A stretch of 61,961 bases of DNA, counting the filler, from Globobulimina sp. (Eukaryota), in NCBI GenBank assembly GCA_003354225.1. It is 19 parts of 19 records of this genome, joined end to end, with 100 filler letters (N's around TTAATTAATTAA, not from the genome) between each part and the next. Parts side by side here need not be neighbours in the genome. Positions count along the whole stretch, not along the records: positions 9,805 to 12,971 come from PIVH01003522.1; 18 more parts are not named here. One strand, 5' to 3'. Positions 3,169-23,442 of the stretch are shown here, piece after piece. The position numbers were made by a program, and so were the translations under genes. Position 1 is the first letter of the stretch; every line of letters starts with the position of its first letter. The notes under the pieces are model-generated. The model made no database searches. It was not told the origin of the DNA and saw only the letters and a list, made by a program, of their open reading frames with translations.

Positions 3169-3268
3169 NNNNNNNNNNNNNNNNNNNNNNNNNNNNNNNN
3201 NNNNNNNNNNNNTTAATTAATTAANNNNNNNNNNNNNNNNNNNNNNNNNNNNNNNNNNNNNNNNNNNN
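3169..3268. other. Artificial contig spacer (first of 18)
   Basis: N-run + TTAATTAATTAA (stops in all six frames) + N-run. Contigs: 1-3168, 3269-6436, 6537-9704, 9805-12971, 13072-16238, 16339-19505, 19606-22772, 22873-26039, 26140-29305, 29406-32571, 32672-35837, 35938-39103, 39204-42369, 42470-45635, 45736-48901, 49002-52166, 52267-55431, 55532-58696, 58797-61961. Confidence 0.99.
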
Positions 3269-9704: not shown

Positions 9705-10273
9705 NNNNNNNNNNNNNNNNNNNNNNNNNNNNNNNNNNNNNNNNNNNNTTAATTAATTAANNNNNNNNNNNNNNNNNNNNNNNNNNNNNNNNNNNNNNNN
9801 NNNNTCATCAGGAGTTTTAAGGGGGTTGTTTCAAAGACTTGTGATTAAGAATATTTCCTATAGAAATGATCCTGTACAAGTATTTCCTTAAAGAATAATA
9901 TTTTCTCATTTGCTAACTCCACTCTCATGCCATTCCCATCAAATATCTATAAATTCCATGCAAACCAATTCCATTTATGGTACGGTATTATATCCAATTC
10001 AATTCCAATCACAAATAACTAACTCACTGAATGCTGCTCCATCTGTCAGATGTAATCTATTCTGTGTGTTTCAGTTTCAGTGTTGAGTGTGCCATGACTG
10101 CCATGCTCAGATCAGATGATCGAATTTAATGTTTGACTGTTTTGTTTTTGAGTAAAAAATAAATGATTCCCTAAATGTTGCTGAAATGTACGTACACAAA
10201 TTTATGGATAATGCCCGGCCCGGCCTGTGATGTCTGCAAATTGTTGATGCAAAAAAAAAAATAAACTTTGTGT

Positions 10274-10478
10274 TGACTCAGATAGGATTCAAACCTATAT
10301 CTATGTGGACTGTACCAACAACATTTGGTTATGTATTATATTTAAGGTGTTGGTAAACAAATTGCTTTTAAACTTGGTTACGTTTTATCATATTGAGAAA
10401 AGGTTGGTTGTTGGGGGGACACAGCCGAAGCTGCAGACACACGCTCTATCAAATATTAATTAATTGAGCTACTGAGTC
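10274..10478 (-). ncRNA. tRNA-like RNA with 121-nt structured insert in the anticodon loop (copy A; nominal anticodon GCA)
   Basis: Acceptor GACTCAG/CTGAGTC+A, D-stem GCTC/GAGC (19-nt loop ending GATA), stem TGTG/CACA, T-arm ATAGG-TTTGAAT-CCTAT. T10 run at 10260-10251 downstream. Confidence 0.85.
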
Positions 10479-10650
10479 TTGTATATTGCTTGTGCTTAAC
10501 ATAATTATTGATGCGCTATATATGTTGCTATCGAATGGCACACAAATATTTATGGTATGCTACTGGTACATTCTCAGTACACAATAGATTTCAATGGAAA
10601 GAATGTTTTGAAGTGGCAAGCAGTTAATATATAATAATTATAGGTATTAT

Positions 10651-12379
10651 TCAGTTGTCTATATGTTTAATGTTCTTTGCGTTTCTTTCTTCAAACATCA
10701 ATTGAGCATCTTTTCCAATAAACAAATAAATCCACAACGAAATAACAACAAAACATGTAAAAGATGGCAAATATGCATAATATACCGCCGTTCTATTAGT
10801 GTCAATATGCGTTACTGATCCACTCCAAATAAATCCAGTCAATGCGGGTCCAATTGCTCTGACCAAAGCAGCCCATGTTTGTGCCATTCCATTTGCTCTC
10901 CCAACACAACTATTTGGCACTGAGTTATTGACCCAGCACATCGAAGCAACAAATATTATGCTCACAAAGCAAACTGCTGCCATAGAATTAATAAAAGCCA
11001 ATGTCAATGCTATAACTTCTGCGTTATCACTGCCCAGAATACCAAACTCATTAATTGTGGTAAATATGCTCGGCATTTGAAACATCACCACACACATTAC
11101 AACAGCGCAAATTATGCACATTGGGCGAAAGCTAAATCGTTTGAAAAACCACGGTTGAATAAAATATGTAAATACTAATAAACAGCCACCTGAGAAGGCC
11201 GTGCAATATCCAATCAATTGAGAGGAAAAACTCAATGCTTGCGCCATATAAACCGGATTCATTTCTTGATACATCATAAAAGCCATAACCAACAACGTAT
11301 ATATCACCAAACCATGGCACAATGTGGTGCCAAATACTAAAGCAAACACAGTTGAATATTCTTCAATAGTTTGCTTATCATTATCCTTTAAATCAGCCAT
11401 CAATAATCCTTGCCGTTCAGCGCTGGCTTCTGATCTCGAATAAGCTGTCAATGAATTATGAATGCCATCACCTGGACAGACCTCAACAACTGCCAGTTTT
11501 GCTGGATATTAATGTACAACATAACAAAAGCTATAAATATATAACAAATTAAAATATAAAAAAACATATTCCGAAATACGTACATAATTCTACAGCATCC
11601 ATTGATTTTGGATAACTGTCAAGAGTGTCAATCATCATTTTATCCGAAATCACAGAATGATAATCATCGCGGTCTGCATCGGACAGCTTAAATTGCTTAA
11701 AAGTTAACTTTTCGTCGCGAATAAATATCAATGTCCAAACTAATGCATTGCCGCTGATAAAAGCACCGATAACACATGGCAGCAAAAACGGATATTCATG
11801 GTCAAAGATCCAAAATTTGAATATGCCGACAGTTGGTATGTATTCATCATCAGATACATCGACATCATGTGTTTCTATAAATATGCCGCCACACATTGCT
11901 CCCAGCACAGACCCAAAACCGTAGGATATTGCTAATGTGCTGAAGGCCCAGGCTCTGTTGCTGCCATCTGTGACATCGGCGAGGTACGCTTTGATTACAC
12001 CCAGATTGCCATTAAAAAAGCCACCGATACAGCGGGCACCAATTGCCATGACAAAGCTTGTGGATAATCCAAAAGAGAGAATTGCGATGGTACTGAATAC
12101 CAAACCAATTAGCAATGATATACGACGTCCCCATTTATCAGAGGCTAATCCCCAGGCATAGCAACATAGAAATTGACAAAAACAGAAGCTGGCATTCAGA
12201 ATTGATGTATAAATGCCTAACAATTCAGGCCTAATTCCGAAATCCCGCACCATGAATACAACCATTGGTAACAGCACCGTTATTTGATACGCTTCGTTTA
12301 ATTGCACAAAAAAAACTGCCCATAATTTTTCATCTGTTAAAAGAGGTTTTTTTACACTTTTCGTTGACAGTGTTGACAT
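10651..12379 (-). CDS. MFS transporter (ZIF/MFSD10/TetA-like)
   Basis: MFS motif A (WGLASDKWGRR), GGFFNGNLGVIKAYLADVTD and GRANGMAQ. GT-AG intron 11583-11502 joins the two ORFs in frame. Confidence 0.9.
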
Positions 12380-14817: not shown

Positions 14818-16238
14818 ATGTCAAACAACGAAATAATTAATATTCAAGTAGGCAAAGGCGGAATTAACGTTGGACTTTTATTTTGGCGGCAAATATTGCA
14901 GGAACATGCTCTTGGTCTGGATGGTGTATTTCGTGGAAATCGATTAGATCCAGACAATGAACTGCGTCTTGATAGAATAAATTCATATTTTTATGAAAAA
15001 GGGCGCGGAGTCTTAGCGACTGGTTATATTCGGCAATCTATCGAATCAAAATATAAATCATTGGCCTATATACCATCAGATATTAAAAAACTTTGTAAAC
15101 AGTATATTGGTTCATTCAACGCAGGACATTATGTCCCCAGATCAATATTTATCGATTGCGATCCCAAACAGATTGATTCCATTCGAATGTCACATTTGCG
15201 AAATGTATTTACTTCAAACAACTTTATTGTTGGACAAGGCGGGAATGGCAATAATTGGGCAATGGGCTATCACAGTAAACACATTCTGCAGCAAATTATG
15301 AACAATGTCCGATTTGAGGCTGAAAACTGTGATTATCTGCAAGGATTCCAGCTGGTTCATAGCATTGGCGGTGGTACCGGCAGTGGATTAACATCCAATT
15401 TATTAGCTTCATTAAAAGATAATTATCCACATACAATAAATCAGACATTCACAATATATCCATCACCAAAAGTGTCAAGTTTTGTGGTTGAAGCGTACAA
15501 TGCAACATTGTCAATAAACAAATTGATACAATATGCGGATCAAACTTTTGTAATCGACAATGAAGCAGTTTTTAATATTTGTCATAATGTTTTGAAACAA
15601 AGAGAGCCGACCTATGATGATTTAAATTGGATTGTATCGAATGGAATGAGTGGAAGTACAGCATCCTATCGGTTTGCAGGTGGAATGAATTCGACATTGC
15701 GACGGTTTGGTATAAATATGGTATCGTTTCCGAGATTGCATTTCTTGCTCTTATCTCATGCTCCACTGTATGCTGCAGGACAGGGACACAAACAAAAGCT
15801 GACTGTGCAAGAATTGACTGATCAAATATGGTCATCCCGCAATTTCTTTGCAAACATCAAGCCTGAGGATGGCAAATATTTATCAGTTTCAACTGCGTAT
15901 AGAGGATGTATATCAACTCCAGAATATGACGATGAGAGTGCGAAAATTATGCAGAAAATGGCAGATGACTTCGTAGTATGGATTCCAAATAATATTAAAC
16001 CATCAATTTATTCAATACCACCTCCGAATATATGCATGACAGCGAATTTGATTGGAAACACGAGTGCTATCAAAGGCGTATTGCAAAGGATATCAGCACA
16101 GTTTGCGCAAATGTTTAAAAGGAAGGCATTTTTGCATTTTTATATGAAGATAGGAATGGAAATGCAGGAGTTTCAAGATGCTGATAAAAATGTGCGAAAT
16201 TTGGTGACTGAATATCAGGATAAACAGGATATTGTGGT
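14818..16238 (+). CDS. Divergent beta2-tubulin-like protein with internal GYIR-motif insertion
   Basis: GGGTGSG, PSPKVS, FPRLHF, QELTDQIWSSRNF, RISAQFAQMFKRKAFLH and EFQDADKNVR match the foraminiferal type-2 beta-tubulin pattern. Insertion at about 15010-15105. Confidence 0.93.
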
Positions 16239-16887
16239 NNNNNNNNNNNNNNNNNNNNNNNNNNNNNNNNNNNNNNNNNNNNTTAATTAATTAANNNNNN
16301 NNNNNNNNNNNNNNNNNNNNNNNNNNNNNNNNNNNNNNTGTGTCTACAATATTTTTTTGCCTTTTTTAATATTATATTAAGTTTTATACATTTGGTTCAC
16401 TAGCTATAGCTTTGTGTTGAGTTTGTTATAACTTTGATTAATATAAATATATAATTGTTTTGGTGGTGTTGGCTTCCAGAAGAGGCTAATTTTCGAACAG
16501 TATATAAACGGTGAAGTTTTATAAACGACGTTTCGGCAAAATGATGCCTTTTTCAAGTTTAGTTGAATTAAAGTGTAAAAAGTTTTTGATGTAAACAAAA
16601 ACAAAACACAGTAAGTTTATCCAAATGCAATAAAAATAAAAATGGAGAATATTGATAAGAGAGATAAAAAGATGATAATGGATTGGAGCTAATAGAAAGT
16701 ATGGATATATGTACTAATATACGTAAAACCAAAAAACCAAATAAAAAACCAAATAAAAGATATACGTAAAACCAAAAAACCAAAAAACCAAATATGTGTT
16801 GGTTCAGTGCAATTTGGTGAGTTTATATACTTATTTGTTTAATATCAAATGTTCACAGAAAGAGTTATGCAGCGGGTCAGTGTCAGC

Positions 16888-16959
16888 GGGTCAGTGGTCT
16901 AGTGGTATGATTCTCGTTTCGGGTGCGAGAGGCCGCGAGTTCGATTCTCGCCTGACCCC
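16888..16959 (+). tRNA. tRNA-Pro(CGG)
   Basis: GGGTCAG/CTGACCC acceptor, D-arm with AGTGGT loop, CTCGT-TTCGGGT-GCGAG anticodon arm, GCGAG-TTCGATT-CTCGC T-arm, C73, T-runs downstream. Confidence 0.96.
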
Positions 16960-16995: not shown

Positions 16996-18348
16996 TCATA
17001 CATCTGCGGCAATGTCAATGTAATCAGTGATTAGGTCTCTAACACAATGATCAGCCTCAACAAATTCCATCTCATCCATTCCTTCGCCTTTATACCAATG
17101 CAAAAACGCTTTACGCTTAAACATCTTAGCAAATTGAGATGATATTCTTTTGAAAACAGTTCCTATCGAAGTGCTATTTGTAATCATTGCTACGCTCTGT
17201 TTTATGTTTAATACTGGTTTCCTTACAAAAGTAGATATAACTTCGTTTTCTGTCACAATTGGAATATCCTCAACCTTTATAGCACCGACATTTCCGTCAC
17301 TTCTATGCAACACAATTGTGGATAAATTGACGCAGTCATTATTATAATATGAATATGACCGATGTTGAGGTTCAAATAATTTGTGTACCAAATCCAATGT
17401 GTCCAGATTAGATATTTCATTTGGTGCAATGTTTCCATTTCGATCATAAAACGGTGCTCTGGAACTTGTAAAATATTTCAATTTCGGACGTTTCACCATT
17501 TCATTGAGAAACAATCTCACTGTAAATCCATAAGAATCGTTATAACGAAACAATGACATAATATCATTTACCATTTGATTTGCAATGAAATTGAGGTCTA
17601 CGAAACGCGTTTGCTTGATTTTAAATTGATAATAAGCCAAATTATATAAAGCTTCATTGTCAAAAACAAAAGTACCATCACAAAAATCATTCATTTTATT
17701 CACTGACAAAATAGCATTGTACGGCACAGTGATTTGTCCGCCAGTTTTTGGAGAAGGAAATACGGAGAAACTCATTATATCCAAATGAGGGAAATTAGAT
17801 TTGATTTGTTCCATTAACAATGTCCCCATTCCCGATCCCGTGCCACCGCCCATTGCATGAAATATTTGTATACCTTGCGGTGCTCCGTATGATTCAATCT
17901 CGTTTCTGAATGCATCCATACATTCTTCCATCAGTTCAGCACCTTCGGTGTAATGCCCTTTTGCCCAATTATAGCCAGTTCCGCTTGCACCAAATATGAA
18001 ATTATGCGGATTGCAAATGTTGATGAATGGAGACTGTTTAATAATGTCCAAAGTGCCTGATTCTAAGTCAATTTGTATAGCTCTTGCCGTGATACAGGTT
18101 TTTGATGATGATCGTATGCATGAATTGGTGATGGATTTACTGTCTGTCGCGTATTCATCCATTATGGATTCAAAAAAGAGTGTATTCATTGCGTTGCCGC
18201 ATTGTCCCAATGCGATACTGATGATACAATTTGCGTCATAAAATTGAATACAAAGTTGAATGATGGGGTCAGGGATGGTTTGTGACAATGATTTCTGTAT
18301 AAAACGACAGTATCCGGACACAACCAGATGTACAGTACAAAGTGACAT
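16996..18348 (-). CDS. Divergent beta2-tubulin-like protein with N-terminal GYxR-motif extension
   Basis: GQCGN, DLESGT, FGASGTGYNWAKGHYTEGAEL, GGGTGSG and RISSQFAKMFKRKAFLHWYKGEGMDEMEF are present. The middle region is strongly diverged and there is no acidic tail. Confidence 0.92.
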   Translation of the reverse strand: MSLCTVHLVVSGYCRFIQKSLSQTIPDPIIQLCIQFYDANCIISIALGQCGNAMNTLFFESIMDEYATDSKSITNSCIRSSSKTCITARAIQIDLESGTLDIIKQSPFINICNPHNFIFGASGTGYNWAKGHYTEGAELMEECMDAFRNEIESYGAPQGIQIFHAMGGGTGSGMGTLLMEQIKSNFPHLDIMSFSVFPSPKTGGQITVPYNAILSVNKMNDFCDGTFVFDNEALYNLAYYQFKIKQTRFVDLNFIANQMVNDIMSLFRYNDSYGFTVRLFLNEMVKRPKLKYFTSSRAPFYDRNGNIAPNEISNLDTLDLVHKLFEPQHRSYSYYNNDCVNLSTIVLHRSDGNVGAIKVEDIPIVTENEVISTFVRKPVLNIKQSVAMITNSTSIGTVFKRISSQFAKMFKRKAFLHWYKGEGMDEMEFVEADHCVRDLITDYIDIAADV

Positions 18349-18419
18349 GTTTAATTCCAGAAATAAGGAGAAAGACCAGCAAAAAAACAAAACATACAAC
18401 GTTCACACAAATACATTAA

Positions 18420-21216: not shown

Positions 21217-21334
21217 ACATTTGTCTGCCGTTCTTTATATGTCGCAAATCAATCGCCAAATCGATCGTTCTCACTTTAGATTGAAAAAGCAGAGTTCAGT
21301 GAAAAAAAGACACAAAAACACAATCGCAATATGC

Positions 21335-22772
21335 ATGGTGCGTGAAATTGTGAATATCAATGTTGGGAATTGTGGCAGTTGGATTGGTCATGATTTTTGG
21401 AATACAATCAGCACAGAACATAATTTGGATAAAAACGGAAATTGTACATTTTTCGATGATACTATAATGGATAAAATCGATGTATATTTCAATGAATCTT
21501 GCACTCAATCTCAAAAATACGAACCCCGCACAATATTTATTGATTTAGAAGCAAGCACATTGGACACAATTACAGCATCATCCATCAGTAACTTGTTCAA
21601 ACCCGATAATTTCAATTGTTTCAGCAACAATGCCACAGCGCATTTATTTCCAAATGGATATTACCATCAAAGCGCAGATACATTGGACACAATCAAAGAT
21701 TGCATAAATCATGAACTAGAACGTTGTGATTGTTTGCAAGGATGGCAACTTATGCACTCATTGGGTGGCGGTACTGGCTCAGGTTTAGGGACAAAAATTA
21801 TGACATATTTAAGGGATTTCTGGCCTGATAAAATAAATTCAACTTATTGTATATTCCCAAACTCTCAAAGCGACGCTCCAGAGCCATATAATGTGATATT
21901 AGCAATGAATCAAATCATTGAAAATTGCGATTATGTAATGATTTTCGACAATGATTCGTTATGGAATATTACAAAAAATATGTTAAAACAGGAAAAAGCA
22001 AGCTTTGCTGATTTAAATTGGTTAATTTCATTGGCGATGAGCGGCGTTACGTCTCCGTTGAGATTTAGAGGCAATTACAATGACACACTGTTGAAAATGT
22101 GTGTGGATTTAACACCATTTCCCAGGTTGCATTTTTTTGTTTGTTCACATGGCCCTTTTTTTAATATCAAACAAGGGGACAAATTGAAGTTATCTGCACA
22201 TGACGTTACCAATCAAATATGGTCAAAAAACAATTGTTTGGCCAATATTGATCCAGCAGATGGCAAATATTTGAGCAGCATATGTATATATCGACGGGAT
22301 TTAGTGGATTTAGAACTGAATTATAAAATCATTCATTCATTTATAAGAGAGAGTGAATTGGAGAATAGAAAGGTTTCAATGGATATTATAAACTTATTGT
22401 TGAAATATTTTACCTTTGGAAACAACAAAGGTGTTTTGCCAGACTATGGGGAAATATTTAAGAGCAAAGAGAGAGCCTGCAAAGATTTTGTGGCGTGGAT
22501 TCCAAATACGCATAAAACATCATTTATTGAGATTGCACCAAATACAACTTCGCTAAGTGGCACATTGATTGCTTCCACAACATCGATCGCATGTTTTTTA
22601 AAACGAATATTGAATGAATTTGAAACGTTGTTCAGTCAACAAAAGCAGCTTCATTTATATTTGAATGCAGGAATGGATGATATTGAATTTTTGGAATCTG
22701 GAGCAAATGTTAGAGATTTGATGGCTGAATATAATGATAGACAGTCAGTTAGGCAGTTATGCCGGCATTGGT
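21335..22772 (+). CDS. Divergent beta2-tubulin-like protein with insertion after strand S8
   Basis: MVREIV start, GGGTGSG, PFPRLHFF, DGKYLS and DFVAWIPN. Insert KIIHSFIRES...VSMDIINLLLKYF at 22325-22411. 3' end cut by the spacer. Confidence 0.92.
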
Positions 22773-23442
22773 NNNNNNNNNNNNNNNNNNNNNNNNNNNN
22801 NNNNNNNNNNNNNNNNTTAATTAATTAANNNNNNNNNNNNNNNNNNNNNNNNNNNNNNNNNNNNNNNNNNNNGAATGGCACAATTTTTCTTGATTTGGAT
22901 GGTAATTCCATATTGGAAAATAATTAAATTGTATTATACGCCCGCGGCTGCAGTGATTGGTGCGTTATTAAATTCGTGTTTTGGTAAATGTTTAAAGAAT
23001 ATATCACCAAAAGGAGCGACCGTCAATGTAAATAGTAAAGGCGCACAAAATAATGTGCCATCCATTGTATCCAGTATTCAACAACAAGATGGACAGCAAA
23101 CTGGTTATCCAAAACTTGAGTAAGTTTATTTTTTATTGTTTTTGCCCGTTTTTAATTATTATTGGACCTAAATACGTATTTTGTGATAAGTATATAATTT
23201 GTAGATTAATTATTAGACCTAAATACACCTAAATCCTTGCACTTTTCTCAAGTTTTCACAGAAAATCATTGCTGTGATCTAGTCAATGCGTGCAAGCATA
23301 GAGCACAGTCATTACATCATTGACATGCAAAAAAAGAATGAATTGATGGAACCTAAGAGATAAAACACAATAAACACTAAATAAACTCATAACTAATTAT
23401 GTATATAAACAACCACAAAGCATACAAACACTTTTCTACATT

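Follow-up and report, generated by a model that had tools for sequence, protein, structure and literature searches.

What is made from a gene that has the outline of a transfer RNA (tRNA) and carries a long, folded insert in its anticodon loop? Two such elements, copies A and B, lie in a stretch of 61,961 nucleotides (nt), filler included, in which 19 parts of 19 records of the Globobulimina sp. assembly GCA_003354225.1 are joined end to end (the window, always meant at its full length). A sequence-only reading had described them as tRNA-scaffolded RNAs whose inserts share an ordered set of motifs, and every string and coordinate that it gave for the two copies was correct when checked against the sequence. 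Our analysis indicates that A and B are probably RNA polymerase III (Pol III) tRNA genes of a foraminifer, belonging to a Cys-GCA family and to Arg-ACG respectively, with extra-long structured putative introns between positions 37 and 38. Copy A is most likely a member of an expressed, multi-copy nuclear tRNA-Cys(GCA)-type family, and copy B a related tRNA-Arg(ACG)-type gene.

Both copies fold into a complete cloverleaf (A at 10478-10274 on the minus strand, B at 50705-50939 on the plus strand) with the insert exactly between positions 37 and 38, which bears out the tRNA-framed gene with a structured insert that had been proposed. The parts of copy A are:

10478-10431, minus strand: 5′ exon, 48 nt (with its long D-loop), comprising acceptor strand GACTCAG, D arm, anticodon-stem strand and the loop bases C-U-GCA-G
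10465-10447, minus strand: D-loop, 19 nt
10430-10310, minus strand: putative intron (the insert), 121 nt, at the canonical 37/38 site
10434-10421, minus strand: hairpin P1, GCAGC-TTCG-GCTGT, followed by GTC
10414-10407, minus strand: 5′ strand of stem P2, which closes the insert (CCAACAAC)
10322-10315, minus strand: 3′ strand of stem P2 (GTTGTTGG)
10356-10378, minus strand: variable hairpin in mid-insert (ACCAAGTT, loop, AATTTGTT), including the second TAACCAA and AATTTG
10322-10339, minus strand: block ATAATACA..AACCAAATG beside P2, whose core ATACA plus AAYC(M)AATG is kept in 6/6 copies
10309-10274, minus strand: 3′ exon, 36 nt, with U38, CCACA and variable loop TAGAT, then T arm ATAGG-TTTGAAT-CCTAT, acceptor strand CTGAGTC and A73
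10261-10251, minus strand: run of 11 T, 13 nt past the gene, a putative Pol III terminator

Those of copy B are:

50705-50740, plus strand: 5′ exon, 36 nt, with anticodon ACG and a 7-nt D-loop
50741-50903, plus strand: putative intron (the insert), 163 nt, at 37/38
50737-50750, plus strand: hairpin P1, ACGAT-TTCG-GTCGT, followed by GTC
50764-50770 with 50891-50897, plus strand: stem P2, CCTGCAT paired with ATGCAGG
about 50795-50862, plus strand: long additional hairpin region within the insert
50904-50939, plus strand: 3′ exon, 36 nt, with T arm GTAGG-TTTGAAT-CCTAC and A73
50946-50953, plus strand: run of 8 T, 7 nt past the gene

Comparison of A with B revealed that the tRNA body is kept by compensating changes. 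Pairs altered on both sides occur in the acceptor stem (3/7), the D stem (1/4), the anticodon stem (1/4) and the T stem (1/5), and U8, A14, G18, U33, G53, U54, U55, A58 and C61 are present in both copies; the four stems (7, 4, 5 and 5 pairs) and the conserved bases are maintained throughout, the exceptions being position 31/39 and A19-U56. The UUCG hairpin on the anticodon was found again in both copies. In A, intron bases 6-10 are paired to the anticodon, to G37 and to the first base of the intron under the UUCG cap (pair probability 0.94-0.95 in a constrained fold), and between A and B two double and two single changes fall within its five pairs, so that the hairpin tracks the anticodon (GCAGC/GCTGT versus ACGAT/GTCGT). 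Thermodynamic folding of B alone did not recover its P1. The long-range stem P2 also held in both copies, with double changes in three of the seven comparable pairs; across the five Cys-type copies described below, 92.5% of its alignment cells are paired, and its 3′ strand GTTGTTGG has a second possible partner, TACCAACA, within the insert. In A and B alike, the insert sits at 37/38 and intron bases pair with the anticodon, as in an intron-bearing tRNA gene.

The two inserts also share words in the same order (TCAATATG, 8 nt, TAACCAA, AATTTG, ATAATACA, AACCAA). When the best collinear chain of shared words was compared with dinucleotide-preserving shuffles, it was matched by 1/2000 (k = 5), 1/2000 (k = 6) and 2/2000 (k = 7) of them. 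Taken singly, the motif GGTTTGAATCC with at most one mismatch gave two matches (equalled in 39/100 shuffles) and the pattern with the 8-nt spacer and at most two mismatches gave two (equalled in 17/100 shuffles), neither of which is significant. By manual count, A and B agree at about 74% of their exon positions, which exceeds the expectation for tRNAs of unrelated acceptor types, and their exons have the T arm and the rare A19-U56 in common. This likeness suggests, as far as sequence comparison goes, that the whole intron-bearing gene was duplicated and its anticodon then shifted, with the first bases of the intron changing in step. Because the exons too are unusually alike, such a duplication is as likely as transfer of the intron between A and B. 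A19 and U56 replace G19-C56 and change together in 6/6 copies; the window's tRNA-Pro carries G19 and C56, as do the ordinary tRNAs of the small contigs. The substitution looks like a compensated elbow pair.

Scanning of a prokaryote genome collection with the 5′-half pattern identified four paralogues of copy A (L010, L012, L013 and L014) on contigs of 773-2051 nt and 30-32% GC filed under a bacterial bin; two further matches, L011 and L015, lie in bacterial records and were left out as presumed chance. The bin in question, record G001, contains many short contigs of 29-38% GC with eukaryote-type tRNA genes, U3 small nucleolar RNA (snoRNA) genes and the long-intron tRNA family (loci L010, L012-L014, L025 and L042-L056). 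Since other contigs in this record carry eukaryote-type tRNA genes and U3, we read the contigs of the paralogues as eukaryotic, and the short contigs of G001 are probably mis-binned host DNA. A loose end in run X1 is identical to part of the L012 intron, and the same run has the single-copy gene of the window without mismatch (by eye); the paralogues therefore co-occur with the window's organism. No relative of copy B was found in G001. A metagenome scan with the insert pattern gave one match (L001), which is coding-like, without a tRNA frame and due to chance. Among viral contigs the 5′-half pattern had 0 matches and the 3′-half pattern eight, none with an insert (an ordinary tRNA, Ala, Ala and Thr, lay over the match in three and none in five), so the T-arm word alone is not specific to the family. 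A loose structural scan of the small contigs returned noise only beyond the known genes, and the structural scan of the whole window returned copies A and B, an ordinary tRNA-Pro at 16888, one spurious match within coding sequence and nothing else.

In the alignment of the five Cys-type copies (A and its paralogues), mean pairwise identity was 0.96-1.00 in the 5′ exon and 0.53-0.72 in the flanks. Along the intron it was 0.91 for bases 1-30, 0.49 in the middle, 0.79 for bases 73-116 and 0.56 for the last 5 bases, and an internal intron block of 30 nt is identical in three copies. The 5′ exon is the same in all five except for the length of the D-loop (9, 9, 12, 16 and 19 nt, via AT-rich expansion), and the 3′ exon varies at positions 39, 57 and 73 only. 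Intron length is 117-129 nt in the Cys type, and the range including B is 117-163 nt. The named structure pairs 95.6% of the alignment cells (5/500 shuffles equal). The middle hairpin (helix 6) has eight pairs, none invariant and three changed on both sides, with 84.6% of cells paired, a partly circular and modest support, as it was RNAalifold that proposed the helix from these five sequences themselves. RNAalifold itself returned a rod-like fold and no cloverleaf for the five-copy alignment, and the author-defined structure was used instead. Such a pattern of conservation is what would be expected from selection on the tRNA body and on the folding intron ends, and not on the middle.

The larger comparison changed the picture of the insert. 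TTCGG, GT(G/T)TC, TTTG, ATACA, AAYC(M)AATG and the closing stem occur in 6/6 copies; TCAATATG, the 8-nt spacer, the first TAACCAA and AATTTG occur in A and B only (2/6). Thus the motif order claimed for A and B stands beyond chance between these two, but TCAATATG-N8-TAACCAA was found in 0/4 further copies: the 5′ module with its fixed 8 nt, on whose persistence in more copies the sequence-only reading had staked itself, is absent from 4/4. The suggested bipartite protein-binding layout is unsupported. The proposal that the fixed-length segment is a guide is unlikely, as the spacer is present in 2/6 copies and the insert middle is 49% identical versus 53-72% in the flank. AATTTG, which had been likened to an Sm/Lsm site, is present in 2/6 copies and in none of the four additional ones, where it has shrunk to TTTG, and this TTTG is the 3′ strand of a hairpin. 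In the A type, AATTTG pairs with the second TAACCAA in a hairpin kept by compensating changes, which makes a fixed-length guide as well as a single-stranded site of the Sm kind unlikely. An Sm/Lsm-binding RNA was rejected, with no conserved single-stranded A-U(3-6)-G site in the family, and so was a box C/D or H/ACA guide within a tRNA intron, with no snoRNA family matching the inserts at E <= 10; where L012 and L013 have CUGA words, the remaining copies have ATAA in the alignment. An Rfam search at E <= 10 found nothing credible of any kind in the insert of A or B.

To assign tRNA identity, two finders were used, Rfam (RF00005, gathering score 29) and ARAGORN. With the insert treated as an intron, Rfam scored L013 at 41.6, L012 at 41.5 and L014 at 35.6 bits, with no match for L010. 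With introns allowed, ARAGORN recognised L012 as tRNA-Cys(gca), the intron being 127 nt long, and found nothing in L010, L013 and L014. After removal of the insert in silico, ARAGORN at its 95% setting called B as tRNA-Arg(ACG) of 72 nt and did not call A. An ordinary tRNA on an AT-rich contig of G001, Asn-GTT, has a canonical intron of 11 nt, so that tRNA splicing is to be expected in this lineage.

The surroundings of the genes were examined for signals of transcription, and the features concerned are:

10548-10557, minus strand: upstream element TACCATAAAT of copy A, 70-79 nt before the first base, a putative promoter element
10516-10523, minus strand: TATA-like ATATATAG of copy A, 24 nt past the upstream element and about 38-45 nt before the gene, conserved in the five-copy alignment
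50633-50642, plus strand: upstream element TCCCATAAAT of copy B, 63-72 nt before the gene
50668-50680, plus strand: TATA-like TATAAATATATAT of copy B, 25 nt past the upstream element
9889-9805, minus strand: U3 snoRNA 5′ domain (boxes A′/A, UGAUGA), cut by N at 9804, about 385 nt past copy A
L013 813-930, plus strand; L012 513-635, minus strand; L014 45-161, minus strand: uncut U3 copies (29.8, 28.1 and 26.8 bits)

TACCATAAAT lies within a 21-nt block identical in 5/5 Cys-type copies, with adjacent flank of 59-72% identity, and occurs again upstream of the U3 gene (9982-9973). TCCCATAAAT of B is one of 15 matches (at most one mismatch) in the whole window, and its strand and distance are right. 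The arrangement of (T/C)CCATAAAT plus TATA is common to A, B and U3, and the element is absent upstream of the canonical tRNA-Pro at 16888; we infer from these sequences that it may act as a promoter. Internal boxes are also present, an A box (TAGCTCAA..) and a B box (GGTTTGAATCC, 10/11 positions of the consensus), and a T-run stands at the corresponding place after every copy. With A box, B box and downstream T-run in place, transcription by Pol III is predicted.

The U3 gene lies 385-396 nt downstream of the Cys-type tRNA genes on the same strand. In the window it matched ACEA_U3 (24.8 bits, E 0.0066, 3′ side truncated); all U3 scores (24.8-29.8 bits) are below gathering and the 3′ domain fails to align. 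The repeat unit shared by the copies is at least 850 bp long, including U3. In L012 and L013 the sequences found at the two ends of L014 lie side by side, suggesting that units of about 2.1 kb follow one another head to tail. The window has a single unit between two protein-coding genes, and neither U3 nor any Rfam match was found near copy B. In the spacer between tRNA and U3 (10110-10249), near-identical blocks are present in all copies (a 21-nt word past the terminator and about 45 nt ending near 10110), and 10110-10189 on the plus strand has a weak box C/D match (SNORD5, 16.9 bits, E 3.7); this stretch may represent the promoter of U3 or a further small-RNA gene.

Contigs from several runs were used to look for RNA from the locus. 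In runs X2, X6 and X7 a neighbouring mRNA is present in spliced form (joint 11501 to 11584), so these runs contain RNA-derived sequence. The intron involved is an 82-nt GT..AG spliceosomal intron (11502-11583, minus strand) of a major facilitator superfamily (MFS) transporter gene, skipped in three runs and spanned in a fourth. On copy A, contigs of X2 span 10229-10440, with fragment ends that abut adapter at 10277 and 10304; as these ends fall inside the 3′ exon, some RNA carries 3′ exon sequence. An 83-nt contig of X7 lies wholly within the insert (10324-10406). Such contigs give neither RNA ends, strand nor level; X2 has no cover of 10017-10228 and 10547-10652 and little on 10441-10546, and coverage gaps and contig depths were excluded as evidence. 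X1 has 79 contigs on 3.2 kb (identity 90-95% in 29, with variant joints), and its contig-depth sums of 453-893 over the element versus about 6.5 over the neighbouring gene hint at many copies without giving a copy number.

Several observations count against working tRNA genes with introns. As they stand, copies A and B are missed both by Rfam at gathering and by ARAGORN with introns allowed; Rfam gave A 18.3 bits for its 3′ part only and B no tRNA match. Cys tRNAs require U73, and A73 stands in copy A, N73 being A, A, A, T and G in the five Cys-type copies (U73 in 1/5). Position 31/39 is mismatched in 6/6 copies (U-C or U-U), the D-loop reaches 16-19 nt in two, and U56 departs from the textbook B box and weakens it. 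An upstream element of the small nuclear RNA (snRNA) type is unusual for a housekeeping tRNA gene. At the splice sites, neither a bulge-helix-bulge nor a pair between position 32 and the intron was clean at the expected register in A or B (by eye): C32 faces C in both at the register set by B, where a pair with the third-last intron base would fall, and the shifted CUG/CAG helix seen in A (probability 0.71-0.80) is not kept in L010, L012 and L013. No exon-exon joint was present among the joints listed for four runs, three of them RNA-bearing, which is a weak point, mature tRNAs being short, modified and rarely assembled into contigs. The family comparison comprises six sequences, five of which are close paralogues (Cys type).

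The D-loop of 19 nt in A against 7 nt in B and the A73 of both copies, which had been taken as arguing against use in translation, are real, and copy A is possibly a poor translator; but the D-loop is a length polymorphism and no family trait, and with 3/4 new copies reaching the Rfam tRNA threshold, non-translation is not supported for the family. Individual copies such as A, with the longest D-loop (19 nt) and A73, may be weak or non-translating members. As to splicing, PMC4090602, in its account of the eukaryotic endonuclease, states that the enzyme does not require pairing around the splice sites.

If A and B are intron-bearing tRNA genes, their expression might proceed as follows. Pol III would start about 25-40 nt past the TATA-like box downstream of (T/C)CCATAAAT, read through A box, intron and B box, and stop at the T-run. 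The ends would be trimmed, with the L-shaped body held by A19-U56. This intact body would position the tRNA splicing endonuclease, which would cut after 37 and before 38 by measuring distance. The first ~30 intron nt (UUCG hairpin, GUSUC and C-run) and P2 would fold the intron into a compact side domain, and its middle could drift freely as long as a hairpin was retained.

The rival that survives best holds that the excised insert is itself the product, a stable and perhaps circular RNA resembling a tRNA intronic circular RNA (tricRNA), with the tRNA body serving mainly as a scaffold for transcription and processing; we consider it unlikely, though it answers to several of the results above. 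The intron ends and the 30-nt block of three copies are conserved above the flank, the variable hairpin keeps its pairing by compensating changes, and the inserts of A and B have ordered words beyond chance. N73 is free and D-loops are sloppy, the upstream element is held in common with U3, and RNA-derived contigs lie on the insert. However, the insert middle, where a guide or specific site would be expected, is no better conserved than the flank (0.49), the 5′ module is missing from 4/4 further copies, the insert matches no known RNA family, and the best conservation is in the exons, anticodon loop included. The contigs, which could hardly reveal one, showed neither a back-splice nor a circular junction. 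A bolder form of the same idea, that foraminiferal tRNA-shaped Pol III cassettes with snRNA-type promoters release structured, possibly circular RNAs of 120-160 nt through the splicing endonuclease, is doubtful. On this view, to be held just as tentatively, the RNAs would have a common core (UUCG hairpin, closing stem, AUACA..AAYCAAUG) and a fast-changing hairpin, would be produced together with U3 and would work in the nucleolus or on other RNAs, and the exons, once joined, would be a by-product or a secondary product.

That the insert is never removed, leaving a tRNA-like non-coding RNA of 200-235 nt with an expanded anticodon arm, is improbable. No exon-exon joint was seen, a clean bulge-helix-bulge is absent, the 5′ splice site would lie inside P1 one base from the UUCG loop, and X2 fragments end by adapter inside the 3′ exon; yet the insert occupies exactly the 37/38 site in two anticodon types with its first bases tracking the anticodon, which is the classical pre-tRNA pattern, and its length (117-163 nt) and middle vary freely.

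We give equally little weight to decaying tRNA pseudogenes, a tRNA-derived repeat (of the kind of a short interspersed nuclear element (SINE) or a satellite) or mere promoter companions of neighbouring small-RNA genes. For the last there is a precedent in Leishmania, where, according to the part of PMC4950102 that concerns U2, sequences in tRNA-like and tRNA-Ala genes drive U2 transcription. The multi-copy state (79 X1 contigs on 3.2 kb), the repeat unit with U3 and its suggested head-to-tail order, the microsatellite-like expansion of the D-loop and the free N73 would all suit such an origin. In trypanosomatids the tRNA/snRNA layout is divergent, with about 95 bp between the genes, unlike U3 here, which is on the same strand and 385-396 nt downstream. 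Plain decay is disfavoured because the exons are 96-100% identical against 53-72% in the flanks, a contrast at odds with uniform decay; the insert is followed by the 3′ acceptor strand and the terminator, unlike in a SINE; and B, solitary and without U3 or an Rfam match nearby, has kept the same architecture.

Other candidates were rejected: a tRNA-derived SINE, since the insert stands between two tRNA halves that pair in a 7-bp acceptor stem, with a terminator behind, and the copies have at least 850 bp including a U3 gene in common (target-site duplications were not systematically searched); a telomerase-RNA-like template, the C/A-rich runs being multi-copy, different between copies and inside a tRNA; a vault RNA, the D and T stems covarying as in a true cloverleaf; a miniature inverted-repeat transposable element (MITE), its would-be terminal inverted repeats differing between A and B and covarying as an RNA stem; and a second intron in the D-loop, which is AU-only, polymorphic in length and without a bulge-helix-bulge.

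Gene-dense and of 33% GC, the window has genes for tubulins, Sec8, a BEACH protein and further proteins of eukaryotic type. Three divergent tubulin-family genes lie within 8 kb (14818-16290, plus strand; 16996-18399, minus strand; 21221-22828, plus strand). The first of them, which is beta-tubulin-like, is closest to foraminiferal transcripts of Nonionella, Bolivina and Ammonia (50-62% identity), and for this reason we took the organism to be a foraminifer or a near relative of one. In the ordinary tRNA-Pro(CGG), the first 9 bases of the gene are repeated 15 nt upstream (GGGTCAGTG .. GGGTCAGTG, window 16873-16896). The window also has 36 runs of 44 N in 18 pairs spaced about 3266 bases, the first at 3169, one of which cuts the U3 beside copy A. 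Among the G001 contigs, degenerate or odd tRNA-like sequences were noted (L046 541-610, L047 9-78, L053 1-68, L050 480-563, L052 388-471 and L054 541-614), with short D-loops without GG, 8-nt anticodon loops, and a Val-like gene with an 8-nt insert and a B-like T arm; the organism may have further unusual tRNA-derived families.

If A and B are working Cys and Arg tRNA genes, they would push up the lengths on record for eukaryotic tRNA introns, present an elbow in which A19-U56 takes the place of G19-C56, add tRNA genes that have an snRNA-like element upstream and share a repeat unit with U3, and provide a second, non-archaeal example of related introns across tRNA identities. The genes of the window also show why standard tRNA finders overlook such loci, which matters for the annotation of rhizarian genomes. 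The genes would be of greater interest if the intron proved to be a stable product, as in the bolder reading of a natural tRNA-cassette system that makes stable intron RNAs. In our literature search, which covered main texts, tRNA introns that are long or share motifs were not described for Rhizaria or Foraminifera.

The closest known system is the eukaryotic tRNA gene with a 37/38 intron processed by the Sen/TSEN endonuclease, for which PMC4090602, in its section on canonical introns, gives lengths of 6-133 nt, an intact mature domain and a ruler mechanism. Insert site, anticodon pairing, mature domain, A and B boxes and oligo-T are alike, and the Cys type (117-129 nt) lies at the top of that length range with B (163 nt) beyond it. 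The differences are the A19-U56 elbow, the 31/39 mismatch, the snRNA-like upstream element and an intron architecture common to two acceptor types. Stable circular RNAs arise in metazoan tRNA splicing, as described in the relevant part of PMC4536317; the animal tricRNAs resemble the present case in having a long structured tRNA intron, here with RNA-derived contigs on it, whereas here no bulge-helix-bulge-like motif was recognised, the organism is a rhizarian protist, and no circular junction was seen among the contigs. Spread of introns between different tRNA genes in Thermoproteales archaea is mentioned in PMC4090602 with reference to Fujishima et al. (2010). There, too, related introns sit in tRNA genes of different acceptor identity, but the archaeal case relies on the bulge-helix-bulge, not found here, and in A and B the exons are also alike. 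In Entamoeba, the portion of PMC2652664 on array organisation reports 25 tRNA array units, each containing at most 5 tRNA genes and some encoding 5S RNA as well. These share with the Cys-type copies the placing of tRNA genes in repeated units with another small-RNA gene; here the partner is U3, the tandem layout is deduced from contig ends, and the window copy is single between protein-coding genes. Finally, vertebrate tRNA-Sec requires extragenic promoters resembling those of U6 (PMC2943599, in the passage on its promoter). Like A and B, it is a tRNA-shaped gene with an upstream element and TATA in common with a gene of the snRNA class; here the anticodons are those of Cys and Arg, and the promoter role is suggested by conservation only.

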